From an uncultured Vicinamibacteraceae bacterium (lineage in GTDB: Bacteria > Acidobacteriota > Vicinamibacteria > Vicinamibacterales > UBA8438), in the NCBI GenBank assembly GCA_964342695.1, contig CAYFFV010000003.1:53695-117694 (forward strand): a stretch of 64,000 nt of DNA, given 5' to 3'. This document shows, in pieces, positions 8,495 through 56,980 of this stretch. The notes below the pieces were generated by a model. The model worked only from the letters and a program-made list of their open reading frames with translations, ran no database searches and was not told the DNA's origin. Each line of letters opens with the position of its first letter. Position 1 is the stretch's first letter. Made by a program: the position numbers and the translations under genes.

Positions 8495-9700
8495 GTGGCT
8501 GTATTGTTGAGAGCCGTCCTACTTTTAGTTTGTGTTTCTGCTGGCAGTTTAGGTCAGGGTTTTTTCAGTTCTGTGCAGGCTGCCAGATCGGAAATATGGT
8601 TGGAGTTTGTGTCAGAAGATTCTGGCACGAGCATGGTGGAAGTGGCTGGCCTGAACCCAGCTGATCTCGTCGTGCTGGATCACGCTTCTCTATCGAATAC
8701 TGAATGGCAACAAGTTTTTCGAGTTTTCATTGCCGATGATATTGATTCGGATCGGTTGCCAGTATTAGGCAAGTATTCGATTACTAATTTAACGATTCGC
8801 TTTACTCCCCTTTATCCTTTCGATCTAGGTCAGGATTACGATGTTGTCTTTAATCCGGCTGGATTTGTTTATCGAAAAGGTCTAAGTGTTGAATGGCCTA
8901 CCGATACTTTGGTGAAAAGGTTTCATGTAAAAACGAGCGTTACAGTTCCATCTACAGCAATTTTGGGTGTATTTCCTTCCGCCAAGGAGCTTCCTGAAAA
9001 TCAGCTTAGGTTCTATGTTTTCTTTTCTGCTCCTATGGGTTTCAAAGGAGGTTCTGCCCACGTTTCGCTTTTAGATTCCGATGGAAGTGTCATTCCTAAC
9101 GCTTTTCTTCCTTTGGATGTTGCTTTGTGGAATAACGAACGCACTCGATACACGATGCTTTTTGACCCAGGTAGAGTCAAGACTGGCATCTTTCCCAATC
9201 AACAAGATGGTCGCCCACTTCAATCGGGAGAAAACTATACCTTAGTTATAGATCGGCACTGGGCAGATTCGAATGGAATTCCTTTAGTTGAGTCATATAA
9301 GAGAAGCTTTCAGGTTGTTCCTCCGGAGAAACGTCCCATTGTGCCGTCAGCTTGGAATCTAGAGGTGCCGAGGGCAGGTTCCGTTGATTCGCTGAAAGTA
9401 TCATTTCTTAGATCTCTGGATTATGCGCTATTGCACCGTGCATTAGTGGTAATAAACAGTCACGGAGAGGCAGTTCAAGGTGAGATGTTTGTTCAGAAGA
9501 ATGAGACAGAGTGGTATTTTACTCCTGTCACACCGTGGTCTTATTCAGAATATCGACTGCTCATACTTCCCGTACTCGAAGACCCGAGCGGTAACAGAGT
9601 TAATCGTTCCTTTGAGGTTGAGTCGACGCAATCGATAATTGATAAACATGAAAGTTCTAGTCATCTTGCTTTTAGGCCGCGCCTAACGCAAGAACCCTGA
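8495..9700 (+). CDS. Exported hypothetical protein with Ig-like (SbsA/Big-type) domains
   Basis: 401 aa ORF with a signal peptide. Motifs PENQLRFYVFFSAPM, LFDPGRVKTG, F...LDYALL..., LEDPSGN resemble bacterial Ig-like repeats. Confidence 0.6.
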   Translation: MAVLLRAVLLLVCVSAGSLGQGFFSSVQAARSEIWLEFVSEDSGTSMVEVAGLNPADLVVLDHASLSNTEWQQVFRVFIADDIDSDRLPVLGKYSITNLTIRFTPLYPFDLGQDYDVVFNPAGFVYRKGLSVEWPTDTLVKRFHVKTSVTVPSTAILGVFPSAKELPENQLRFYVFFSAPMGFKGGSAHVSLLDSDGSVIPNAFLPLDVALWNNERTRYTMLFDPGRVKTGIFPNQQDGRPLQSGENYTLVIDRHWADSNGIPLVESYKRSFQVVPPEKRPIVPSAWNLEVPRAGSVDSLKVSFLRSLDYALLHRALVVINSHGEAVQGEMFVQKNETEWYFTPVTPWSYSEYRLLILPVLEDPSGNRVNRSFEVESTQSIIDKHESSSHLAFRPRLTQEP

Positions 9701-9916
9701 GGTCAAATTTTTGTTGTGATGATTTTTTTATTTCCAGAAAAACAGTGAAGAATTTCAAGTATTAGTAGAACTGATATTAATCCAAATATCTGCAAATAAA
9801 ACAATTACTTAGTCTTTGTTCCTCCCAGTCTTTACGGTGCATCATTACCAGGCGTGTCTTTCATTTAAATCCCGTATAAACTAGTCTCCTTAGTTCATTT
9901 ATTCACATAAAAAAGT

Positions 9917-45716: not shown

Positions 45717-47930
45717 TTACTCTGAGGTGACTTCTGCGATTGCGGCTTCTAGATCACTGTAAATGGTCGACACCATTTGTTCGCGTAGTTGTTTGACATT
45801 ATTTGTCGAACCGTCAATTTTCGCAGAAGAGACAACGACGCCATCTTTTTGTCTGACCACTCTCGCGGTCACACGAACGGTGTCCCCCACGCGTTGGATA
45901 CCACCAGTGACCACGAAAGTCGCACCTGTTGGTTCGTCGACAAAAGTCGATGTTTCGTTAAGAGTAATTTGCGTGAACAGTGCCTCGTTAATGCCTTCAA
46001 CCAGTAATGTATCTTCCGGGTTCTGGGTGAGATTAATGAATGGTTTCATCGAGATGGTAATGCCAGTTGATGTGGGGATACTAGGCGTTTCAACTGGTGA
46101 GAAGGCCGGCGGTCTCATTGCCGGTTCTGCTTTTGGTAATTCATTAACAGTGCGGACTTTAAGAACAGCTTGAAGGCTTTTTCGAACAGTCTCTGCAACT
46201 TCTTCTTGAACATTTGATAAGCGGTCAAGGTGTCCGTCTACCTTAATAACGTCGATCGTTCTACTGTCTTCTGACTGTACGATCCGGGACGTTATTTTTA
46301 GTCTTTCACCTTCTTGCTGAACAGCGCCTCCAACGACCCACTGAGCTGTGGTTGTGTCTGGTACGATTGTTACCGTTTCAAGATTCTCGAACTGCTCCGA
46401 TACAAGTTGAGCAAGCGTTTCACCGAGACGGATCGTTTCAGTTTGCTGACTCAGGTTCGTAAACGGTAAGACCGCGACGGTGGGTTCCCCTTTTGGTTTG
46501 GCTACTGTTTCAAGGTTTTCAGGTGCCGTGTTAGCGTCTTCCTCAGGTAAATTTGAAGTTAAAACGACCGGAGGCACATTTAGATCTTGGGTTGCTTGTT
46601 GTTTGTCTATTGATTTAATTTTTGTTTCAGAAGTTCTCGCCACAACTGCTTGTAGCCAAGCAGGAGATTCTTGTGCAACTCTCTGGTTGGAAAGCGGATC
46701 CAGAATTTCTGTTTCAATTGGTTGTGGTTGCACAGCGTCCTGCAAGTCAATCTGTAAGTCAATAATTTCACTGACCTGCACCTGCATTCCATCAGTCGGG
46801 CTATCAAGTGTTGATATCGTAACTTGGTCGCCGGTTTCGAGCCCTGCTTCGATAAAGAGTGACTCTGTTGTCATTCGAAGAATATCTACGTCACGGAAGC
46901 GGAGTCTGCTTTCCTCATCAACTACCATCACTTGATTGCGGCCACGAAGAGCCGAACGGGGGATCGAAGCAATTTGACTGAAGCGACGTCCTGCGATCTG
47001 TGCGTCAACATACATCCCCACCGCGAGAGGAGGTCTGGTTGGATCCGAGCCTACCCCATAGGGATCTCTGATTTCAGCAATTACATTCACCATTCTGCTA
47101 ACAGGGTCGATCTCGCTTTCTGTTCGTACAATGCTTCCCGCCCATGCGTAAGTTTCACCAGCAAAAGTAGTGCTGACTGTTACTTGAGGTCCTTGAGAAT
47201 TAGTTTGGCCTCGATAAGACAAAGGTAAGTCCAGATAGGCCAAGTCCTCGTCGGGTAGCGGTAATCTTATTTCTGCGACGTCGACGGCGTAGATGGTTGC
47301 TATAGGGTTTCCTACGGTGACAAATTGACCAACATCAACACTCTTACGGCGCACCCGCCCCGCATATGGTGCACGAATTTCTGCGCGCTCAAGATCGCGT
47401 TCTGTTCGAACAAGGTTAGCTTCGGCAGCCGCGACTGCTGCGCGTGCATCTTCAAGTTGTGGTTTTCGAAGTGTTAGTTCACGTGGGTCACCTTGGCCAA
47501 GTTCGTCCCATTCACGTTGCGCAACTTCTGCTTCGGCCTCTTCTTGCGCTAAACGTAATCTTGTTTGTGCCAGTTGTGCCCGCGCACTTATAACGGCCTG
47601 ACGATAATCAAATGGATCAATAGTGACCAGAACGTCGTTAGCTTCAAAAAAACCACCTTCTGCAAAAGAAGGTGCAATGGATGTAATACGACCAGAAATT
47701 TCTGGAACAAGTTGACTTTCTGTGCGAGGCTGGACGGTCCCTTCACTTAAAACAGAAAGCTCAGTATCTTCGAGGCGAACGACATGCACACGCACGCCAG
47801 GTGGAGCAATTCGAGGCGCCTGTGTTTCCACCGGAGGCCGACTATTTATCATGGTCATCGTGGCAAAACCTGCCAGCCCCAAAATACCTAGTGGAAGAAT
47901 CACTTGTAATAAACGGATAGCTATACGCAT
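45717..47930 (-). CDS. RND membrane-fusion (periplasmic adaptor) protein with about 350 aa C-terminal extension bearing two TolB-N/CsgG-like domains
   Basis: MFP motifs LVPEISGRI, F..G.FF, IRAPYAGRV, V.VGQFV, IPRSAL. Then PTVAVLPFTNLS...GAVQQEGERLKIT and MKPFINLT...GGIQRVGDTVRVTARV. Confidence 0.88.
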   Translation of the reverse strand: MRIAIRLLQVILPLGILGLAGFATMTMINSRPPVETQAPRIAPPGVRVHVVRLEDTELSVLSEGTVQPRTESQLVPEISGRITSIAPSFAEGGFFEANDVLVTIDPFDYRQAVISARAQLAQTRLRLAQEEAEAEVAQREWDELGQGDPRELTLRKPQLEDARAAVAAAEANLVRTERDLERAEIRAPYAGRVRRKSVDVGQFVTVGNPIATIYAVDVAEIRLPLPDEDLAYLDLPLSYRGQTNSQGPQVTVSTTFAGETYAWAGSIVRTESEIDPVSRMVNVIAEIRDPYGVGSDPTRPPLAVGMYVDAQIAGRRFSQIASIPRSALRGRNQVMVVDEESRLRFRDVDILRMTTESLFIEAGLETGDQVTISTLDSPTDGMQVQVSEIIDLQIDLQDAVQPQPIETEILDPLSNQRVAQESPAWLQAVVARTSETKIKSIDKQQATQDLNVPPVVLTSNLPEEDANTAPENLETVAKPKGEPTVAVLPFTNLSQQTETIRLGETLAQLVSEQFENLETVTIVPDTTTAQWVVGGAVQQEGERLKITSRIVQSEDSRTIDVIKVDGHLDRLSNVQEEVAETVRKSLQAVLKVRTVNELPKAEPAMRPPAFSPVETPSIPTSTGITISMKPFINLTQNPEDTLLVEGINEALFTQITLNETSTFVDEPTGATFVVTGGIQRVGDTVRVTARVVRQKDGVVVSSAKIDGSTNNVKQLREQMVSTIYSDLEAAIAEVTSE

Positions 47931-47944
47931 TTTAAAAGAAATAA

Positions 47945-49393
47945 TTAATTAAAAAACCCGCCCGAATTTTCCAACATGAAAGGCGATTCGATTTGTTCGA
48001 AACCCCCTCCTAATGCAAGGTAGAGGTCGACACGGTTTTCCAGGCGAAGTCGCTTGGCGGCGATTAATTCTCCTTCAACCTGCACTGCAGATCTCTGTGA
48101 GTCAAGTACAGTAATGTAGCTTTCAAGGCCGGCTCGGTAGCGTTCTTCCGAGAGTGTCTCAGCAGCCCTTGCTTGTTCAGCAGAGATTACGAGATGTTTT
48201 TCCCGGTCTTCCAAGAATTGTTCGGCCGCCAACGCTGTTTCCACTTCTGCGTAAGCGATGAGTGCCGTGTTTGCATACGAGGCTAATGCTGTTGCGCTTT
48301 CCGCTTCCGCGCGACCAATATGTGCCCCAAAGCGACCTTTTCCCTGCCACAAGGGTGCTGTTACATCTGCAAGAAGGCTCCAAACGCTGAAATCTCCGTT
48401 AATGAGAGAACGGAGTGCATCGGTGGCCGTTCCACCACCTGCCGTTAGCCGAATACGCGGTAGTCGTTCCTTCCGCGCAACACCAACTCGAGCTTCGGCG
48501 GCAGCAAGTTGTCGCTCGGCAGCCACAAGATCAGGTCGACGAGCAACAAGATCTGCAGGCAACCCACTTGGTACGTGCGGTGCTACAGTGGGGAGCGAAG
48601 CGGGTGGTTCAATGGTCCCGTCCGCATATTCGCTCAGCAGTACTTTGAGTTGACGTGTGGCGGAATCAAATTGTTGTAATCGTTGTTCCAACAATGCTTC
48701 TGCATTCGACAAATTGAGTAACGCAAGTCTCAGATCAAGTGACGGTCTAATCCCTGCTTCAAACCGCTCTCGGACTCTGTCGGCCGATTCTCTAAAACTA
48801 GTTACAGTCTCGCGGGATAAATCTATTTGTTGTTGCGCTTCGGCGATGGCAAACCAAGTCTTCACGGTCTGTCCAGCAATTGATAATTGGGCGCCTCTAA
48901 AGTCTGCTGCCGAAGCTTGTAAGTTTGCTAGCGCTGCTTGGGTACTCGCCCGTAGCCGTCCCCATAGATCAAGTTCCCATGAAACATCTAGAGAAATACC
49001 GTGATTGGTGGAAACAGTGCTCAAAACCTGGTCTTCTGCTCCAGGAATCGGAAAGCCCACAAAGTTTTGTTTACGTTGATAGCGCGTATACGATGAATTT
49101 ACCGTTGGTTGTAAATCAGCCGATGAGATTGTTGCTTCTGCGGCCGCCATTTCTAAGCGTGCCGCAGCGCCTTGAAGATCGAAATTGCGCTCTAAGGCCA
49201 TCTCTACCGTCTTTACAAGGTCGGCATCGGCAAAGTCCTCCCACCATCGGACTGCAACTTGCCCAGTTTCTGTGGTCTTTGCCGTCCAGGTCTCTGGAAT
49301 ATTGACTCCAATGTCTGGAACTTGTACCGGTGGCGCCGTCGCGCAGCTACAGACAATTACGGAGACAAGGGAGATTATTATTTGCCTACTCAT
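47945..49393 (-). CDS. RND outer-membrane factor lipoprotein (OprM/NodT family)
   Basis: Lipobox VCSC; WWEDF.D..L..., SWELDLWGR, P.GLPADL..RRPDL.AAE, RYRAGL..Y..VLD.QR, V.LY.ALGGG. Confidence 0.93.
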   Translation of the reverse strand: MSRQIIISLVSVIVCSCATAPPVQVPDIGVNIPETWTAKTTETGQVAVRWWEDFADADLVKTVEMALERNFDLQGAAARLEMAAAEATISSADLQPTVNSSYTRYQRKQNFVGFPIPGAEDQVLSTVSTNHGISLDVSWELDLWGRLRASTQAALANLQASAADFRGAQLSIAGQTVKTWFAIAEAQQQIDLSRETVTSFRESADRVRERFEAGIRPSLDLRLALLNLSNAEALLEQRLQQFDSATRQLKVLLSEYADGTIEPPASLPTVAPHVPSGLPADLVARRPDLVAAERQLAAAEARVGVARKERLPRIRLTAGGGTATDALRSLINGDFSVWSLLADVTAPLWQGKGRFGAHIGRAEAESATALASYANTALIAYAEVETALAAEQFLEDREKHLVISAEQARAAETLSEERYRAGLESYITVLDSQRSAVQVEGELIAAKRLRLENRVDLYLALGGGFEQIESPFMLENSGGFFN

Positions 49394-50070
49394 TGTTGTT
49401 TGTCTTTTTTGGAAAGAGTCTTCTTGCTAGTCGTTTGTAGTTTAGATGTTGAAAAGCCAGCCGCTGCGAAACGAATTAGAGATTCAAAAAGCTGCTTAGG
49501 GGTTTCCTGGTCACTTTCGTTTGTTGCCGTCAATTCGAACAAAATCATTGTGTGGGACATGGCCCCAAGGGTAAATTCCATGCGGCGTTTTACTTCATCA
49601 GGTTCAAGGTTGGGTAAAGCTTTCTGCAGGGCTTCTGTATACCGCACTACAACTTGATCGAATTGATTAAAAAGCGAGGCTCTTACCTCTTCGCTGGCAG
49701 AATGGCATTGCCCAAGGAATCTTAAAAATTTGAGACCCTTTTGTTTTTCCTCGGTAGTGTCAAGTGCAGCCCATGCATAAAATGGTGGACCAAGAAAAGC
49801 AGAAAGGATGTCTTCGATGGCAGGACTTGTCCCTTCGTTTTTATTGTGTAGTTTGTCAAGCAGTGCGATGCGCTCATTGTTGATGGGGCGCAAATTTCGT
49901 TCAAGGATGGCCTTCAACAGTTCTTCTTTTGAACCGAAATGATAATTGACCGCCGCAAGATTCACTTCGGCTTCTTTGGTGATATCACGCAAAGACGTCA
50001 CTCCGACGCCTTCATCGGCAAACAATCGCTGTGCTGTGTCAAGAATCCGATCTTTAGTGTTAGGGGTCAT
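49390..50070 (-). CDS. TetR/AcrR-family transcriptional regulator
   Basis: TKDRILDTAQRLFA..G...TSLRDIT..A.VN.AAVNYHFGSKEEL. ATGA overlap with the OMF gene. Confidence 0.93.
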   Translation of the reverse strand: MTPNTKDRILDTAQRLFADEGVGVTSLRDITKEAEVNLAAVNYHFGSKEELLKAILERNLRPINNERIALLDKLHNKNEGTSPAIEDILSAFLGPPFYAWAALDTTEEKQKGLKFLRFLGQCHSASEEVRASLFNQFDQVVVRYTEALQKALPNLEPDEVKRRMEFTLGAMSHTMILFELTATNESDQETPKQLFESLIRFAAAGFSTSKLQTTSKKTLSKKDKQQ

Positions 50071-50105
50071 TAAAATTTAATCTGGATAGTCGCGAAATTA
50101 AAATA

Positions 50106-50149
50106 AAACGTTCGTTTAAATCATACGTATGATAAAAACATGGTGTCAA
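50106..50149 (-). promoter_or_regulatory. Promoter and tandem palindromic operators for the tetR-RND operon
   Basis: Minus strand TTGACA (50149-50144), N18, TATGAT (50125-50120). The perfect palindrome ATCATACGTATGAT (50120-50133) overlaps the -10, and a second AAACG-TT-CGTTT lies at 50106-50117. Confidence 0.7.
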
Positions 50150-50378
50150 GACTGATTTTCACGTTTTTACATTGTTTTTTAAGGCCCTGAAAAAATCGTA
50201 TAGCAATTTGGTGTCAGTTAACCTAAATGCCCGAGAACGCTACTTTTATCAACTTCTTTTTCTGAGCTTGTCTAGTCCATGGTAAGCTGTGCTTTCGTGA
50301 GTGCTTTACACTTTTGATTTAAGCACTTTTTTGAAAGAATTTTTTTAAGTTCTGAACTTTAGCTGAGGAGGGTGTCTC

Positions 50379-51023
50379 ATGGGCGACGTGGGACAGTTGG
50401 ATCATCACGAGGAAAAGCCAACAGAGCAAGATGGCTTTTCGCGGCGAAGTTTTATTAAAGGAGTAATTGCGACTGGCGCTACGGTTTCTGCCACCAGTTA
50501 TGTGTATAAGGGTGGAACCATGGTGCGGGCGCAAGCACCTGGGTCGGTGGAACGCTTGATCACGCTTTCAGTTAACGGTCAGCAACGCCGGGTCGATGTG
50601 TTGCCTCATGAAACGCTCGCAACGACCTTACGTTACAAGCTGGGATTAACGGGAACGAAAATCGGGTGTGACCGCGCTGAATGCGGAGCGTGTACCGTCT
50701 TGGTTGATGGAGTGCCACACTATGCCTGTTCAATGTTAACGCACCAGGTTCGTGGTCGTACAGTGCAGACAATTGAAGGGCTTGAAGCAGCAGATGGTAC
50801 ATTGCATCCTGTTCAGCAGGCTGTCGTGGATGAACAGGGTTTTCAATGTGCATTTTGTATGCCTGGCTTCGTCATGAATATGGTCGCGATGGTTGATGAG
50901 AATCCAAATCCGACTCGAACGGAGGCAGCGCAATATCTTTCCGGAAATTTATGTCGCTGTGCGGACTACAACAAAATTTTAAATGTTGCGTTGCGGGCTG
51001 CAGAGTATACGCGGAGGGGTTAA
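50379..51023 (+). CDS. Xanthine-oxidase family 2x[2Fe-2S] subunit with Tat signal (PaoA/YagT-like)
   Basis: Tat motif SRRSFIKG; GTKIGCDRAECGACTV...C; QCAFCMPG; GNLCRC. Confidence 0.92.
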   Translation: MGDVGQLDHHEEKPTEQDGFSRRSFIKGVIATGATVSATSYVYKGGTMVRAQAPGSVERLITLSVNGQQRRVDVLPHETLATTLRYKLGLTGTKIGCDRAECGACTVLVDGVPHYACSMLTHQVRGRTVQTIEGLEAADGTLHPVQQAVVDEQGFQCAFCMPGFVMNMVAMVDENPNPTRTEAAQYLSGNLCRCADYNKILNVALRAAEYTRRG

Positions 51024-51024
51024 C

Positions 51025-53448
51025 GTGGCTGACTATAAACTAATTGGTAAAAACTATACGCCACAAGATCTAGTTGCCAAGGTCACAGGACGCGCAAAGT
51101 ACGCGGAGGATTTTCGGGCGGAAGGAATGCTTTTTGCGAAACTGCTTTCTAGTCCGATGCCCCACGCGCGCATCCGAAGTATCGATACCAGTGTTGCCGA
51201 GGCAATTCCAGGTGTTGAGGCCATCCTTACTGCCGATGATTTACCACCTGTTGAAGCTCCCAACGAAGCAGGGCTTACGAATGAGCCGATGTACGAAGGC
51301 GAACCGATATTGGCGGTGGCCGCTGTTGATGAAGCTACGGCTGCGGACGCGATTGAAGCAATTCAAATTGATTTTGAGCCGCTACCCTTTTCTGTGGATC
51401 CCCTTGAAAGTCTGCGTCCTGGTGGGCCTAATGCCCGCCTCGACGGAAACACAATTTCTGGCCGGGAAATCACTACGATTAAATGGGACAATGTTGATTG
51501 GGATGCTATCGATCGGGGTGAGGCCTTACCCACCGATGCACCCGTAACGGACGAATGGGAACTGGGGAATGTTGAGGCAGGGCTCGATGAAGCAGATCTT
51601 GTACTTGATGAGACTCTGTTCCACCAGTCTATGGGGCATCAGCCGTTGGAGACTAGGACGTCGATGGCTTACTGGCAGAATGGTAAATGCCATTTGTATA
51701 CATCCACACAGAGCACTGCTCGCACGCATGGTGCTGCGGCTCGTGGAATTGGAATTGCACCCGAGGATTTAGTGCTTGTTTCAGAGTACTGTGGCGGTGG
51801 TTTTGGTAGCAAGATAGCAGGCTCTGTCCAAATGCGTATTCCCGCTCTTCTGTCGCAGAAGGCAGGCAAACCGGTAATGATGCGTATAACCAGGCAAGAA
51901 GAGCACGCTATTGGGCGTGCGCGACCAGGGTTGCAAGGGAGAGTAAAGATAGGTTTCCGCAGTGACGGGCGCATTACAGCGATGGATTTCTTTTTTGTGC
52001 AAGATGGTGGTCCTTACGGACGCTCCACTGATTTTATGAACGCCGTCGATCAGGCTTCATTAATGTATCAACCGTTGAGTCATCGTTTGCGCGGGATATC
52101 GATGTATACCAATACACCTCCCCGGTCAGCGCAGCGGGCGCCAGGTGGACTCCAGATTGTTTCGATGCTTGCACCGGTTATGCAGAAGGCAGCCAAACAA
52201 CTCGGACTCGATCCACTTGAGGTTATTCGAATTAATGCTCCAGAAGGTCAGGCAAAAATGGGCCGTCCCCAAGATGGCGTTCAGGGTCATTGTTCGAGTG
52301 CGTTTGTAAAGGAAGCACTTGATAAAGGCGCCGAGGTTTTTGATTGGCAGGCGATGCGAGCCAAGAGTGGTCAGCGCAATGGGTCAAAGATTACTGGTGT
52401 TGGGGTTGCGCTTAGCTCGTTTAATGCTGGTGCGGCAGGCATGGACGGTCTGCTGACGATTCGTCCTGATGGCAAAGTTTATATCCAGCAGGGGATCGGT
52501 AATCTTGGAACAGAATCTGTCTTTGATACGGCGCGTGGCGCGATGGAGGCTCTTAAAACAGATTGGGAACAAGCTGAGGTGGTTTGGGGAAATACCAGTA
52601 AGCATCTTCCGTGGAGTTCGGTGCAGGCCGGTAGTATGACGACACATGCTCATACCCGAGCCAACTATGCAGCTGGAGAAGACGCCGTTCGTAAACTCCG
52701 CGAGGTCGCTGCCAGAGCTCTCGGTGGTTCACCTGGAGATTATGATGTTGAAAATGGATGGGTGTTTCGCCGAGGCAATCGATCCAGTGGCCTAAGTTTT
52801 GCGCAGGCAGCTCAACAGGCGATCGAGCTTGGTGGAAAGTACGATGGGCATGAATTACCCGAGGACATCAATAGCATGACCGTCAATTCGGCAACTGCTT
52901 TGGCTGGTCTAGGCCTGATGGGAGTCGCAAAAGATAATTACCAGACTGGCGGACGTGTAATTTCACATTGTATTGGTTTTGCAGAGGTGGAAGTTGATGT
53001 TGAGACGGGAGCCATTAGACTTGCTGATTATCGAGTGTCCACAGATTGCGGAACGATTCTGAACCCGCGAGGGCTTGAAGGGCAGCTTCATGGCGGAGGT
53101 ATTCAGGGGTTTAGTGCCGCGCTTGGTCAGAAGTGGATTTATGATAGGCGCTGGGGACTCCAGGTAACAAAGCGATTCTATTCGAATCGACCGCCAACGT
53201 TGTTGGATGTTCCGCATACTGATTCAATGCAGTGGGTCGCCCACAATGAAGCGGACCCATTTAACCCACTTGGTGCGAAAGGTATTGGAGAAGCTGCAGA
53301 GGGTGCTGGTTCGGGGGCTGTTTTGTGTGCCATAGCAGATGCTATCGGGGATGGGTACTTTAATCGAACTCCCGTGATGAGCGATATGATTTTGGCAAAA
53401 GTAGAAAATCTGCCTGCGGCAGTAGGGACGCTCACGGCGCACGCCTGA
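51025..53448 (+). CDS. Xanthine-oxidase family molybdopterin-binding subunit (PaoC/YagR-like)
   Basis: GTG start 1 nt after the previous stop. KVTGRAKY.ED, LSSPMPHARI, GGGFGSK, QRAPG, QGIGNLGT, GQLHGG..QG, catalytic GAKGIGE. Confidence 0.92.
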   Translation: MADYKLIGKNYTPQDLVAKVTGRAKYAEDFRAEGMLFAKLLSSPMPHARIRSIDTSVAEAIPGVEAILTADDLPPVEAPNEAGLTNEPMYEGEPILAVAAVDEATAADAIEAIQIDFEPLPFSVDPLESLRPGGPNARLDGNTISGREITTIKWDNVDWDAIDRGEALPTDAPVTDEWELGNVEAGLDEADLVLDETLFHQSMGHQPLETRTSMAYWQNGKCHLYTSTQSTARTHGAAARGIGIAPEDLVLVSEYCGGGFGSKIAGSVQMRIPALLSQKAGKPVMMRITRQEEHAIGRARPGLQGRVKIGFRSDGRITAMDFFFVQDGGPYGRSTDFMNAVDQASLMYQPLSHRLRGISMYTNTPPRSAQRAPGGLQIVSMLAPVMQKAAKQLGLDPLEVIRINAPEGQAKMGRPQDGVQGHCSSAFVKEALDKGAEVFDWQAMRAKSGQRNGSKITGVGVALSSFNAGAAGMDGLLTIRPDGKVYIQQGIGNLGTESVFDTARGAMEALKTDWEQAEVVWGNTSKHLPWSSVQAGSMTTHAHTRANYAAGEDAVRKLREVAARALGGSPGDYDVENGWVFRRGNRSSGLSFAQAAQQAIELGGKYDGHELPEDINSMTVNSATALAGLGLMGVAKDNYQTGGRVISHCIGFAEVEVDVETGAIRLADYRVSTDCGTILNPRGLEGQLHGGGIQGFSAALGQKWIYDRRWGLQVTKRFYSNRPPTLLDVPHTDSMQWVAHNEADPFNPLGAKGIGEAAEGAGSGAVLCAIADAIGDGYFNRTPVMSDMILAKVENLPAAVGTLTAHA

Positions 53449-53473
53449 TTTCAATTAAGAGGAGAACGATACA

Positions 53474-54475
53474 ATGGCCGTTATTCGAGACATGATGCCG
53501 GCGTTCGATTTGTTTCAGCCGACTACTACAGATGAGGCGTTAGGCTTGCTCAGCGAGCACGGCGAATCAGCTTGGGTGCTGGCTGGTGGTTTGGACACTT
53601 ATGATTGGTTTAAAGACCGAGTCAAGAGACCGACTGCAGTGGTTGATCTCGGAGGTGTTGAAGAGCTGCATGAGATCCGGTCGTTACCGGAGGGACTTGC
53701 CATTGGCGCTATGGCTAAACTGACTGAAGTCGTACGCCATCCTGAGGTGAAACAGAGCTACCAACTTCTATCAGATGCTGCAGCGCTAGTAGCCTCCCCG
53801 CAGATTCGTAATCAAGGGACACTCGGTGGAAATTTAGGTCAAGATACACGCTGTTGGTATTACCGAGACGGATGGAATTGTTATCGAGCTGGTGGGAATA
53901 TTTGTTATGCAGATACGCCTACAGCAATGAATCGGGAACATTGTATTCTTGGCGCGAGTCGCTGTGTAGCCGTTAATCCTTCCGACACAGCTCCGGCTCT
54001 TATCGCGTTAGATGCTCAGTTTGAAATTCGAAATGGCAGTGGAACACGAACCGTTTCAGCCGAAGAGTTTTTTGTGGGACCAGCAGTTGACATTGAACGC
54101 ATGACTGTTCTTGAAGCGGGTGACTTGTTGACGACGATACAGCTGTCTCCAAAGTGGGCGGGGGCACGTTTTTACTTTGAGAAGAGTCGAGATAGAGCTG
54201 TCTGGGATTTTGCACTGGCCAGTGTCGCATCTGCTGCCGTAGTGACGAATGGGGTTGTTGAAGATATTCGGATTGCTGTAAATGGTGTTGCGCCGACACC
54301 GTTGCGTCTTCGCGCGGCAGAAGATTTGGTGCGAGGTCAGAGTATGAATAACGATTTGGCGAAACGTGCTGGAGAAGCTGCTGTTGAAGGAGTTCGACCG
54401 TTGGCACATAACGGATACAAGGTCGCACTTCTGAGAAATTTAGTTACACGATCTGTACGAGGTGGTGAGGCCTAG
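53474..54475 (+). CDS. Xanthine-oxidase family FAD subunit with [4Fe-4S] insertion (PaoB/YagS/HcrB-like)
   Basis: LAGGLD, ASPQIRNQGTLGGNL, Cys-rich insert RCWYYR...NCYRAGGNICY...HCILG..RC..V.PSD.APAL, YFEK...R...DFA. Confidence 0.92.
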   Translation: MAVIRDMMPAFDLFQPTTTDEALGLLSEHGESAWVLAGGLDTYDWFKDRVKRPTAVVDLGGVEELHEIRSLPEGLAIGAMAKLTEVVRHPEVKQSYQLLSDAAALVASPQIRNQGTLGGNLGQDTRCWYYRDGWNCYRAGGNICYADTPTAMNREHCILGASRCVAVNPSDTAPALIALDAQFEIRNGSGTRTVSAEEFFVGPAVDIERMTVLEAGDLLTTIQLSPKWAGARFYFEKSRDRAVWDFALASVASAAVVTNGVVEDIRIAVNGVAPTPLRLRAAEDLVRGQSMNNDLAKRAGEAAVEGVRPLAHNGYKVALLRNLVTRSVRGGEA

Positions 54476-54476
54476 G

Positions 54477-55316
54477 ATGCAAATATTTGAATGGGGTGTT
54501 GATCCGTGGGGGCAGGAGATGCTCGTTCGGATCTCATGGGATTTGCTCTATTTAGCATTTTGGACGGGCATAGCGTTTATCTTATTTCACATTGTTTATG
54601 CCGCTGTTTGGTTGCCAAAATTAGTTCGAGCTAAACATAGTAACAATACTGACGCGACGGTTTCGGCGAATCTTCCCGAGCGAATAACCCGGCACACAGG
54701 TGCAGCCAGATTTTTTCATTGGATCATGGCGGCCTCCATGATTGTTCTTCTCATTACAGGATTTTTTCCAGTTATCGGTGTGCAATTTCCATGGCTCACT
54801 TTGCATTGGGTGTCTGGCTTGTTCCTGACCGTCTCAATCGTTTACCACATATTACACGCCACGTTTTTCTTAGATTTTTGGTCTATTTGGATCCTTCCTG
54901 TTGACTTACAGGAGGCGTGGAAACGAATTCGGCATCAGATGGGAAAATCTTCTGACGATATTCCTAAGCACGGCAAGTATCCTCTTGATCATAAGCTTTA
55001 TCACCTAGCGGTCACCCTCGGAGGACTGGCGGTTATCGGAACCGGTCTATTTATGATGTTGCGGATAGAGACTCCATTATGGGCACGGAACGCGTATTTT
55101 CTTGAAGATGCAACGTGGGGATTAGTTTATGCGCTCCATGGTTTTAGCGCGGTTTTTTTTGTGACGTTAACGCTTACTCATATCTACTTCGCTGTCCGAC
55201 CTGAGAAATTGTGGCTGACCAAATCAATGGTGTTTGGATATGTCGAACGCGATCGATATCTTGAACATCATGATCCAGATCGTTGGGTCGTGTCCGAGGA
55301 ATCTTCAAAACAGTGA
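54477..55316 (+). CDS. Cytochrome b/b6-domain membrane subunit (FdnI / formate dehydrogenase gamma-like)
   Basis: RH...RFFHW, LHW..G, GKY...HKLYH, LHG..A, HIYFA, SM..G.V. Four TM His for two b hemes. ATG 54477 is 1 nt after the FAD subunit stop. Confidence 0.85.
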   Translation: MQIFEWGVDPWGQEMLVRISWDLLYLAFWTGIAFILFHIVYAAVWLPKLVRAKHSNNTDATVSANLPERITRHTGAARFFHWIMAASMIVLLITGFFPVIGVQFPWLTLHWVSGLFLTVSIVYHILHATFFLDFWSIWILPVDLQEAWKRIRHQMGKSSDDIPKHGKYPLDHKLYHLAVTLGGLAVIGTGLFMMLRIETPLWARNAYFLEDATWGLVYALHGFSAVFFVTLTLTHIYFAVRPEKLWLTKSMVFGYVERDRYLEHHDPDRWVVSEESSKQ

Positions 55317-55744
55317 CAACGGCTGACGAGCTCCAAGCTCGTATAAATTCTATTGAGGAAAGTTACGAATTTTTTCTAGCTTATGCCGCGCAGGGTGTTG
55401 CCGGCGGTGATGCCGCAGCAGCATCCGGACAGGCTAGAGATTTTCTCGATCGGATGGAGCACGCCCTTGAGAGCCTTGCCGATTTATTTTTAGAGGTTGT
55501 CGAGCGAAATGCTCAGGATGATCTGAGCAAGTATCGATCCTTTATTGACCTGCTACGACAGGATGCCAACAATTCGTTGGCGGCAGTAAAGATGGTATCG
55601 GCTCAGCCGGCCATTAGTTCACAAATGATAGACAACCTTAATGCTTTGATTCATTTACGCGCATTGCTGACTGATGTTTTCTTGATTGACGAAATATTGA
55701 ATCCACGTATTCCTGCTCCTCACAAAAAAGAGGCTGATTCGTAG
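55313..55744 (+). CDS. Conserved-looking hypothetical all-helical protein
   Basis: The GTG start overlaps the cytochrome b TGA (GTGA). Sequence IEESYEFFLAYAAQG...IDNLNALIHLRALLTD.FL.DE. Confidence 0.65.
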   Translation: MTTADELQARINSIEESYEFFLAYAAQGVAGGDAAAASGQARDFLDRMEHALESLADLFLEVVERNAQDDLSKYRSFIDLLRQDANNSLAAVKMVSAQPAISSQMIDNLNALIHLRALLTDVFLIDEILNPRIPAPHKKEADS

Positions 55745-55828
55745 CATCATTCCGGTCTTACATTCGAAGCCGATCCATATGGGTTTCACTAATCAATATT
55801 AAAGCGGGACACATATCTTATCTGTGCG

Positions 55829-56587
55829 TTGGATTTAACTAGGTTTATGGTTCTTGAAAATAAAGTAGTTCTCATTACGGGAGCACGTCGCCTTGGAAGT
55901 GCTGTTGCTGGTGCTGTGGCGCGCCGAGGGGCAGATGTCAGTTTGTCATTTCGACGGTCTCGGAACGATCTTCATAGAGCCGAAAATTTAGTCAAACAAG
56001 CAGGGCGAGATATTTTGGTGACAAAGGTTGATTTGCGTTCTCCTGACGAGTGTCGCTACTTGATTCATGAGACCGTAGAGACATTTGGGCGCCTTGACGT
56101 ACTGATTAATATGGCTTCTTCCTATGAACAGAATGCGGTCGATAATTTAACAGAACTAGATTGGGACAAGGCCTTATCGGTTGACGCAAGGGCAGCGTAT
56201 ATTTGTGCGTTAGCAGCGATACCGCATCTTCGTAGTGCAGGTGGCGGTCACATCATCAACTTTTCTGATTGGACTGCTGCTAGCGGACGTCCTCGATACC
56301 TCGGTTATCTTCCTTATTACGTGGCCAAAAGTGCGGTTATTGGATTAACGGAATCTCTGGCTCTGGAATTGGCGGGAGAAGGAATATTGGTAAATGCAAT
56401 TGCGCCGGGTCCGATAGAGGCTCCCCCAGGCACCTCGCATGAGGAGATACAAGCTGTCGAACAGACAACTCCTTTAGGCCGGTGGGGTGGCGAGGACGTA
56501 ATCGCAAGCACCGTTGTAAGTCTACTTGAGTCAGAGTTTGTGACTGGTGAGACCATTCGAGTGGATGGTGGGCGACACATCAGATAA
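55829..56587 (+). CDS. SDR oxidoreductase, pteridine reductase/FolM-like subfamily
   Basis: ITGARRLG (TGxxRxG), DVLINMAS, IINFSD, YYVAK (YxxxK), VNAIAPG, FVTGETIRVDGG. Confidence 0.85.
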   Translation: MDLTRFMVLENKVVLITGARRLGSAVAGAVARRGADVSLSFRRSRNDLHRAENLVKQAGRDILVTKVDLRSPDECRYLIHETVETFGRLDVLINMASSYEQNAVDNLTELDWDKALSVDARAAYICALAAIPHLRSAGGGHIINFSDWTAASGRPRYLGYLPYYVAKSAVIGLTESLALELAGEGILVNAIAPGPIEAPPGTSHEEIQAVEQTTPLGRWGGEDVIASTVVSLLESEFVTGETIRVDGGRHIR

Positions 56588-56608
56588 ATTCAGCATTGTG
56601 GAGAAAAA

Positions 56609-56980
56609 ATGCCTCAGTTAATTACAAAACCTGCCGTGATTGAAGCGGTCGGTAATAAACCGAAACTCATTCAGGAATTTGTTGGTGGGGTTAACACGGG
56701 GCATACTAATGTTAGTGTGGCGAAAATGACCTCGTCCGAAGGGTGGAAGGAACCTGGTCAACGCCCTGATTTTGAAGAAATTACTCTGGTGCTGAGTGGG
56801 ATGGTACGCGTGGAACATGAACACGGATCTATTGATGTTCACGCTGGGGAAGCCGTTTTAGTGAAGCCAAAAGAATGGGTTCGTTACAGCACTCCTGATA
56901 TTGATGGTGCTCAATACATCGCCGTTTGTATACCAGCTTTTTCTCCCGACACCGTGAACAGAGAGTTAGAGAAAGAATAA
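56609..56980 (+). CDS. Cupin-domain protein (EutQ-like)
   Basis: KPKLIQEFVG.VN, GWKEPGQRPDFEE.T.VL.G, V.AGEAV, WVRYSTP, Y.AVC.PAFSP.TV.RE. Confidence 0.8.
   Translation: MPQLITKPAVIEAVGNKPKLIQEFVGGVNTGHTNVSVAKMTSSEGWKEPGQRPDFEEITLVLSGMVRVEHEHGSIDVHAGEAVLVKPKEWVRYSTPDIDGAQYIAVCIPAFSPDTVNRELEKE

Follow-up and report, generated by a model that had tools for sequence, protein, structure and literature searches.

A conserved operon from a marine acidobacterium combines a xanthine oxidase-family enzyme bearing a Tat signal with an FdnI-type cytochrome b: a probable periplasmic molybdenum hydroxylase:quinone oxidoreductase

Enzymes of the xanthine oxidase (XO) family are mostly cytoplasmic and soluble (PMC7759655), and for PaoABC, the best-studied periplasmic member, the terminal acceptor is unidentified, NAD+ is not used and the reaction with O2 is slow (PMC3958847), which indicates that enzymes of this kind need a partner. 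An operon from a marine acidobacterium, contained in a 64,000-nucleotide (nt) stretch of its genome (henceforth referred to as ‘the window’), raises the question of what such a partner might be: the genes for a PaoABC-like enzyme (A, C and B, for the 2x[2Fe-2S], molybdenum cofactor (Moco) and flavin adenine dinucleotide (FAD) subunits) run directly into the genes for a cytochrome b and for a fifth protein (henceforth the gene 5 product). An earlier note on this DNA had read the locus as a hybrid respiratory complex in which an XO-family enzyme feeds the quinone pool. As described below, the linkage and co-occurrence of the genes across genomes and the conservation of the His ligands of the cytochrome support that reading, and we regard it as probable, with appreciable room for doubt, that the operon encodes a periplasmic molybdenum hydroxylase:quinone oxidoreductase.

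The five genes occupy positions 50379-55744 on the + strand, and their open reading frames and junctions (1, 25, 1 and -4 nt) are exactly those that the earlier note had given, with a plausible ribosome-binding site (RBS) before each gene (Table 1). This arrangement is not due to chance, as it recurs across dozens of species-level genomes. Protein A matched the Pfam families Fer2_2 and Fer2 (PF01799 and PF00111, both above their cut-offs) and TAT_signal, the last of these weakly, though the motif SRRSFIKG is plain in its N-terminal twin-arginine translocation (Tat) signal (SRRSFIKGVIATGATVSA), and a motif of the form SRRxFIKG was present in 55 of 56 homologous small subunits, including those from unlinked and distant loci. 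Protein C has the architecture of an XO-family Moco subunit, with the hammerhead and both MoCoBD domains (Ald_Xan_dh_C, MoCoBD_1 and MoCoBD_2; PF01315, PF02738 and PF20256 at 80, 179 and 144 bits, respectively, all above their cut-offs), and contains the motifs SAQRAPGG and, at the C-terminal G-x-G-E, GAKGIGEAAEG, the Glu of which we take to be the catalytic base. Protein B matched FAD_binding_5 and CO_deh_flav_C (PF00941 and PF03450, above their cut-offs), and its residues C127, C136, C144 and C164 align with the four-Cys [4Fe-4S] insert of PaoB (5g5g_B) and of 5y6q_B and are unchanged in all of seven divergent homologues (identity down to 51%). Hence the three subunits that the earlier note had described, a Tat-signal 2Fe-2S subunit, a Moco subunit with QRAPG and KGIGE and an FAD subunit with a Cys-rich [4Fe-4S] insert, were all borne out. 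Neither B nor C has a signal peptide, and a hydropathy scan revealed no membrane-like segment in A, B, C or the gene 5 product.

To establish which XO-family enzyme this is we compared the subunits with solved structures and with named families. The closest PDB chains were 1rm6_C, 5y6q_A and PaoA (5g5g_A) for protein A, 1rm6_A, 4zoh_A and PaoC for protein C, and 5y6q_B, PaoB and 1rm6_B for protein B. The top NCBIfam scores of the three proteins were to 4-hydroxybenzoyl-CoA reductase (4-HBCR), XdhABC, glyceraldehyde dehydrogenase and PaoABC, and none of A, B and C reached an NCBIfam equivalog cut-off, which, together with the closest solved relatives, suggests that the enzyme represents a distinct XO subfamily. 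Like PaoABC (YagTSR; 5G5G/5G5H) and the periplasmic aldehyde oxidase of Methylobacillus (5Y6Q), the enzyme has three subunits encoded in the same gene order, carries the Tat signal on the 2x[2Fe-2S] subunit alone, has an FAD subunit with the four-Cys [4Fe-4S] insert and is predicted to reach the periplasm by hitchhiker export; according to the abstract of PMC4273604, PaoABC itself is exported as a ternary Tat hitchhiker. In contrast to PaoABC, protein A scored only 133.7 bits against the PaoA family (NF008514, cut-off 322) and protein C 224.9 bits against the PaoC family (NF041671, cut-off 1180), and the operon includes no XdhC/PaoD-type chaperone gene but a dedicated membrane cytochrome b and the fifth protein; a Pfam scan found no cytochrome c gene within it. 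The description ‘PaoABC-like’ in the earlier note is thus correct for architecture and predicted location and not for orthology: judged by its sequence the enzyme is not a PaoABC orthologue, as it misses the equivalog cut-offs and its closest solved Moco and FeS subunits are those of 4-HBCR. Xanthine dehydrogenase function is unlikely, as every equivalog cut-off for that enzyme was missed and protein C has Ile directly after its GGGFGSK motif, the position that in bovine xanthine dehydrogenase is held by the substrate-binding Glu.

We next considered the cytochrome b. It matched Pfam PF01292 (Ni_hydr_CYTB) at 71.9 bits (cut-off 30.1) over profile positions 1-179 of 179 and missed TIGR01583, the FdnI equivalog (55.1 bits, cut-off 115.85); on its profile scores, the system as a whole falls within the XO family and PF01292 and outside every named equivalog family. 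With a profile of the cytochrome b family, E. coli FdnI (1kqf_C) was matched at E 7.6e-5, ahead of HyaC (E 0.035). Consistent with this, FdnI was the sole significant fold match when an AlphaFold2 (AF2) model of the protein (pLDDT 82) was searched with Foldseek (1kqf_C at E 9.1e-6, probability 1.00, TM 0.72 over 225 columns; HyaC was next at E 0.13). Hydropathy and the AF2 model both indicate five hydrophobic helices, and seven His residues (H38, H81, H110, H124, H176, H221 and H235) are invariant down to ~30-40% identity. Three of these, H81, H221 and H235, align with FdnI H18, H155 and H169; the alignment near FdnI H57 is imprecise, and H110 lies at the periplasmic end of transmembrane helix (TM) 2, where FdnI has H57. 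The layout of the ligands is that of FdnI, on TM1, TM2 and TM4, with two on TM4 that are 14 residues apart, and the predicted haem pairs are H110/H221 on the periplasmic side and H81/H235 on the cytoplasmic side. In addition, the sequence GKYPLDHK aligns with GKYNAGQK of FdnI, which holds menaquinone-site residues, and positive charges are concentrated in the C-terminal tail and in the loops TM0-TM1 and TM2-TM3. By this bias the protein is oriented as FdnI is, with the N-terminus and H110/H221 outside and H81/H235 and the quinone motif inside. The FdnI-like protein of the earlier note is thus upheld by profile and by fold, whereas its count of four transmembrane His was too low, there being seven that are invariant; the ligands H81, H110, H221 and H235, the conservation of which had been named beforehand as a test of the reading, are all invariant.

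The cytochrome b therefore resembles FdnI (1KQF chain C) in its fold, in three aligned His ligands, in the motif GKYxxx[Q/H]K and in its predicted topology, and differs from it in an extra His-bearing N-terminal helix, in three more invariant His and in an XO-family partner in place of FdnGH. The extra helix, TM0 (~residues 19-50), carries the invariant H38 and is preceded by a conserved peptide, MELFQWGxxPWGQE. In one group of distant relatives (L106:6708-9196; also L107 and L108) TM0 (MEIFRHSRDVWGQE...AGHAIY) is a gene of its own, of ~50 codons, ahead of a four-helix cytochrome b. The family of this cytochrome b comprises ~3000 clusters at 90% identity and, by sequence comparison, is narrow: a search of 1.84 billion representatives returned 628 matches at E <=0.001, 67 of them below 1e-30.

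Does the cytochrome b belong with the XO-family enzyme? To investigate this, we scanned one genome per species, which gave 190 relatives of the cytochrome b, and analysed the best 80 of these loci; they derive mostly from Vicinamibacterales or Vicinamibacteria, and the rest carry broad Acidobacteria-type labels, apart from two labelled Chloroflexota and one ‘uncultured bacterium’. A-C-B precedes the cytochrome b gene in the majority of the best 80 loci. A set of these 80 loci, the window and 8 distant relatives was used for a maximum-likelihood tree of the cytochrome b, and linkage could be assessed for 83 of its rows: XO genes lie directly 5' of the cytochrome b gene in 59 and are divergently adjacent in one further. 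The 22 loci that lack XO genes upstream fall into a single clade (100/100) surrounded by linked ones; since the outgroups too are linked, linkage appears to be ancestral among the closest relatives and to have been broken once. Unlinked loci often retain their surroundings (HlyD-OEP-TetR, followed by cytochrome b, gene 5, DoxX and a short-chain dehydrogenase/reductase (SDR)), and each of the 15 genomes of the unlinked clade that we tested contains a Tat-signal A-C-B triad (62-66% identity) elsewhere. From the search of 1.84 billion representatives, 8 distant lineages with a cytochrome b of 35-46% identity could be assessed, and 6 of them have adjacent XO genes, on the same strand in four (L093, L094/95, L098/99 and L100) and divergently in two (L102 and L104/105); the exceptions are L097 and L106-108.

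Having established linkage among relatives, we determined co-occurrence in 151 genomes that sample the order evenly. Sixty-one had both the cytochrome b and the Moco orthologue, 86 had neither, one had the cytochrome b only and three the Moco orthologue only; the four discordant genomes are fragmented or incomplete metagenome-assembled genomes (MAGs). The presence of the module is patchy inside families of the order. Of the 62 genomes with the cytochrome b, 39 have the Moco gene next to it, and 22 of the 23 without adjacency hold both modules; the same sample adds a second non-adjacent lineage, family f12. Overall, the link between the cytochrome b and the XO-family genes is strong, and the synteny with XO genes in other genomes that the earlier note had anticipated is seen in tree rows, in genomes of the order and in distant lineages alike.

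The scans also brought to light several arrangements that depart from that of the window. In the most distant relative (L097:1928-4036; 29-32% identical), on a 6-kb contig that carries no XO genes, the next gene after those for the cytochrome b and fifth protein is of the NTP_transf_3 (MocA/MobA-like) type, an arrangement that hints at a link to Moco maturation. In L106-108 a gene for a pyrroloquinoline quinone (PQQ) quinohaemoprotein dehydrogenase lies divergently upstream, a second PF01292 gene and a cytochrome c' gene follow, and there are no XO genes within 7 kb. Genomes of the unlinked clade, L081 (6001-8427), L082, L083, L085 and L087, also contain a lone Moco paralogue, 63-65% identical to that of the window, around which no gene for an FeS or FAD subunit lies within 6 kb; FMN_bind, MoxR-AAA and DUF58 genes come before it in L081, and a gene for a DAO-type FAD oxidoreductase comes after it. 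In the unlinked locus L057 a DoxX-family membrane protein (9363-9824) is encoded between the fifth-protein and SDR genes. The two loci labelled Chloroflexota (L014 and L035) are short contigs binned with MAGs of that phylum and are probably mis-binned, their cytochrome b nesting tightly inside Vicinamibacterales clades. Finally, 9 of 12 other sampled genomes of family f1, to which the window belongs, have a second cytochrome b paralogue, 41-46% identical (e.g. G098:C1:1887194-1888015), and none of those on complete or long contigs is near a Moco orthologue.

As PF01292 proteins also serve the classical formate dehydrogenases and hydrogenases, the genome itself provided a control. Apart from that of the window, the assembly (2.07 Mb, 92% complete) has one PF01292 gene, in a canonical formate dehydrogenase-N operon on contig 2, which consists of an FdnG gene with one in-frame TGA (selenocysteine; TIGR01553 1368 bits), a 287-aa FdnH-sized reading frame, FdnI (TIGR01583 186 bits) and FdhE. 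There is no real NiFe hydrogenase in the genome, its sole NiFeSe_Hases match being 29.7 bits over 77 positions. With the FdnG(Sec)-H-I-FdhE operon elsewhere and no real NiFe hydrogenase, the cytochrome b in the window belongs to neither classical partner, and its assignment as a formate dehydrogenase or hydrogenase subunit was rejected. Gene C is the only XO-family Moco gene of the genome, which also has one XdhC_CoxI gene (on another contig), TatC and MocA/MobA-like genes.

The gene 5 product is the least familiar part of the operon. It had no Pfam or NCBIfam match, and its 2328 homologues are unnamed save for one with a doubtful DUF86 label (JGI). The AF2 model is a helical bundle (pLDDT 88), for which a Foldseek search of the PDB returned only generic or designed four-helix bundles, none of them reaching E 0.05; a DUF86/HEPN identity is therefore unsupported, and inspection of the conserved alignment columns by eye, with no formal search, revealed no R-x(4-6)-H motif. 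The protein is soluble, lacks a signal peptide and TM segment, has no Cys and no cofactor motif, and contains a single invariant His within an invariant polar patch (E15, Y18, E19, Y24, D84, S103, D107, N108, N110, H114, R116, T120, D126 and E127). Gene 5 follows the cytochrome b gene in all 80 loci and adjoins the distant cytochromes b too. The cytochrome b and the gene 5 product are thus the tightest pair, an invariant core that is also found without adjacent XO genes. Because gene 5 accompanies the cytochrome b even where no XO genes adjoin it, a role as Tat chaperone of the enzyme is less likely for its product, which probably serves the cytochrome b in the cytoplasm, as either an accessory subunit or an assembly factor.

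Expression of the operon was assessed with a metatranscriptome from the same sample as the best holder of the DNA, in which the evidence consists of assembled contigs that are fragmentary and may include DNA carry-over. Thirteen RNA contigs match the locus, all in the class of >=99% identity; the eight listed lie within 50323-55446 with zero differing letters, depth peaks over gene A, and one contig crosses the junction between the cytochrome b gene and gene 5. No RNA contigs were found at 50047-50293 or at 55481-56962, the span of the SDR and cupin genes downstream. The span of the contigs and the uncovered flanks fit a five-gene transcription unit that starts near 50323.

Based on these results, we propose the following route for the electrons. 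The folded trimer would be exported by Tat, riding on the small subunit A as in PaoABC, and would dock onto the cytochrome b from its periplasmic side. At Mo it would hydroxylate its substrate, perhaps an aromatic aldehyde or an N-heterocycle (a guess prompted by the TetR and efflux neighbours and by aromatic-catabolic neighbours in other lineages), and electrons would pass from Moco through 2x[2Fe-2S], FAD and [4Fe-4S] to haem bP (H110/H221), haem bC (H81/H235) and quinone. The [4Fe-4S] cluster would be the natural gate, as it is common to XO-family members that have an external protein partner or an unidentified acceptor (4-HBCR and PaoABC). Quinone would bind at a site homologous to that of FdnI, with the motif GKYxxx[Q/H]K, on the cytoplasmic side; protons would be released outside and taken up inside, making the system an electrogenic half-loop like formate dehydrogenase-N. 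TM0 and the conserved periplasmic N-terminal peptide may replace the membrane anchor of FdnH or aid docking.

Several observations weigh against this proposal. No XO subunit has a membrane anchor by hydropathy, unlike FdnH or HyaA, so that docking would need another interface. The FdnI analogy leaves the invariant H38, H124 and H176 unaccounted for and offers no explanation of the fifth protein. No XO genes adjoin the pair of cytochrome b and fifth protein in a clade of at least 22 species, in f12, in L097 or in L106-108, and the co-occurrence across the order (Fisher's exact p = 2e-37) is uncorrected for phylogeny. The RNA evidence, being assembled contigs, could include carried-over DNA. Furthermore, the closest solved Moco and FeS subunits (1rm6_A and 1rm6_C) are those of 4-HBCR, an enzyme that works in reverse.

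The last point leads to the alternative that survives best, in which the complex is the same and runs backwards: quinol would be oxidised at the cytochrome b and the XO-family enzyme would dehydroxylate a periplasmic substrate, as a terminal or detoxifying reductase. Besides being the top solved Moco/FeS match, 4-HBCR (HcrCAB; 1RM6) shares with the present enzyme the [4Fe-4S] insert of the FAD subunit, a gate to an external redox partner. The JGI name ‘thiosulfate reductase cytochrome b subunit’ is attached to a relative of the distant L098 cytochrome b, and cytochromes b of the PhsC type, from thiosulfate reductase, partner reductases. The title of the 4-HBCR structure paper, as it stands in the reference list of PMC3958847, speaks of an additional [4Fe-4S] cluster and of inverted electron flow. 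However, identity to 4-HBCR is only ~30%, all equivalog cut-offs were missed (TIGR03193 at 152 bits vs 258, TIGR03194 at 305 vs 995 and TIGR03195 at 171 vs 405), and HcrCAB, unlike the present system, is cytoplasmic, lacks a Tat signal, is driven by ferredoxin and acts reductively. The hydroxylase motif GIGE with its catalytic Glu is present in protein C, whereas the alignment with 4-HBCR is gapped there, and the predicted quinone site is on the cytoplasmic side, as in the quinone-reducing FdnI. Moreover, 4-HBCR requires a low-potential ferredoxin, for which quinol is no substitute. We consider reverse flow unlikely.

A second alternative is that the two modules are mere neighbours: the cytochrome b and fifth protein would form an independent membrane unit under TetR control (e.g. 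a stress-related quinone/superoxide oxidoreductase like E. coli CybB), and the XO-family enzyme would use O2 or a soluble acceptor. This would suit the unlinked clade, in which the pair stands alone beside TetR and efflux genes, the other neighbours of the pair in L097 and L106-108, and XO subunits that have no membrane anchor. Against it, the two modules are gained or missing together in all but four of the 151 genomes, patchily within families, and are both kept in nearly all genomes in which they are not adjacent; adjacency survives rearrangement at 35-46% identity; the genes share junctions of 1 and 4 nt and common RNA coverage; and the cytochrome b matches FdnI in sequence and fold over any other solved cytochrome b. 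Taken together, these findings make an independent membrane unit quite improbable. The weakest alternative, that the cytochrome b does not reduce quinone but conducts electrons across the membrane, like a wire, to a cytoplasmic partner bound via the fifth protein, in the manner of MsrQ/MsrP, with H38, H124 and H176 holding a further cofactor on the cytoplasmic side, draws on the depth of these invariant His, which is that of the cytoplasmic haem, on a signal-less soluble protein that is strictly coupled to the cytochrome b and on a TM0 that is separable with its His as a module, and is very unlikely given a fifth protein that has neither Cys nor cofactor motif nor fold match and only one invariant His, a conserved FdnI quinone-site motif and no reductase gene conserved beside the pair.

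Returning to the periplasmic hydroxylase:quinone oxidoreductase, the conceptually closest known system is the membrane-bound aldehyde dehydrogenase of acetic acid bacteria (8GY3), in which an XO-family enzyme likewise delivers electrons to the quinone pool from the outer face of the membrane, as is predicted here. Its Moco and FeS subunits are only weak sequence matches (protein C vs 8gy3_C 62.6 bits, over a short stretch). Enzymes of the 8GY3 type lack an FAD subunit and pass their electrons out through a multi-haem cytochrome c subunit; the present system keeps the FAD/[4Fe-4S] subunit and would use an integral FdnI-type cytochrome b for this purpose. The system is thus formate dehydrogenase-N-like at the membrane and PaoABC-like at the enzyme, a new combination of known redox modules with two uncharacterised parts, and literature searches turned up no report of an FdnI-type cytochrome b that partners an XO-family enzyme. 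For a large group of homologues the conserved operon offers a concrete answer to the question of the acceptor. If the proposal is right, electrons from organic substrates, possibly aldehydes or heterocycles, have a new entry point into the quinone pool, which, by analogy with formate dehydrogenase-N, could conserve energy. That a streamlined 2-Mb marine genome keeps and expresses this operon as its only XO-family enzyme suggests that it likely matters for carbon turnover by abundant uncultured Acidobacteriota, and the fifth protein and the His-bearing extra helix are now defined as parts for study. A bolder view, which we put forward as a tentative and rather doubtful one, is that the operon represents an undescribed and environmentally abundant class of energy-conserving respiratory dehydrogenase, in which an exported XO-family hydroxylase would dock directly onto a modified cytochrome b of the FdnI type, with no membrane-anchored FeS subunit between them, TM0 and H38/H124/H176 would provide a further cofactor or a proton/quinone site, and a protein of a new fold family would be an obligatory cytoplasmic subunit. 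In that case PaoABC-like periplasmic enzymes would gain the type of physiological acceptor that they have been missing.

The coordinates of the operon and of its surroundings are given in Table 1. Of the assessable loci, 28 of 48 linked and 8 of 22 unlinked ones have a divergent TetR gene immediately 5', and in others it is farther upstream; the TetR-family protein of the window is the candidate regulator of the operon. Promoter and terminator scans yielded nothing beyond shuffled expectation, with no convincing sigma-70 consensus on the + strand. Membership of the SDR and cupin genes in the operon is unlikely, as they are separated from it by an 85-nt gap, vary in presence and orientation and are without RNA contigs over either.

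Table 1. Positions of the operon genes, their neighbours and the control operon; coordinates are those of the window unless a contig is named.
Feature	Coordinates	Strand	Remarks
Gene A, 2x[2Fe-2S] subunit	50379-51023	+	Start ATG, RBS GAGGAGG; 214 aa
Gene C, Moco subunit	51025-53448	+	Start GTG, 1 nt past TAA, RBS GGAGGGG; 807 aa
Gene B, FAD subunit	53474-54475	+	25-nt gap, RBS AGGAG; 333 aa
Gene 4, cytochrome b	54477-55316	+	Start ATG, 1 nt past TAG; 279 aa
Gene 5	55313-55744	+	GTGA, 4-nt overlap with and translational coupling to cytochrome b gene; 143 aa
5' leader	50323..50378	+	First RNA contig starts at 50323
TetR-family regulator	49390..50070	-	Divergent; Pfam TetR_N and TetR_C_30
SDR	55829..56587	+	Pteridine-reductase-like by Pfam/NCBIfam, below cut-off; 3' of the operon in most loci
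Small cupin protein	56609..56980	+	Weak Pfam matches; in ~30 of 80 loci, on either strand
Canonical formate dehydrogenase-N operon	contig 2, L109:1-5233	-	Outside the window

Farther upstream in the window, on the - strand, the HlyD-type adaptor encoded at 45717-47930 has a C-terminal extension with TolB_N/FlgO-like matches, and the same extension is present in L057 and L070.

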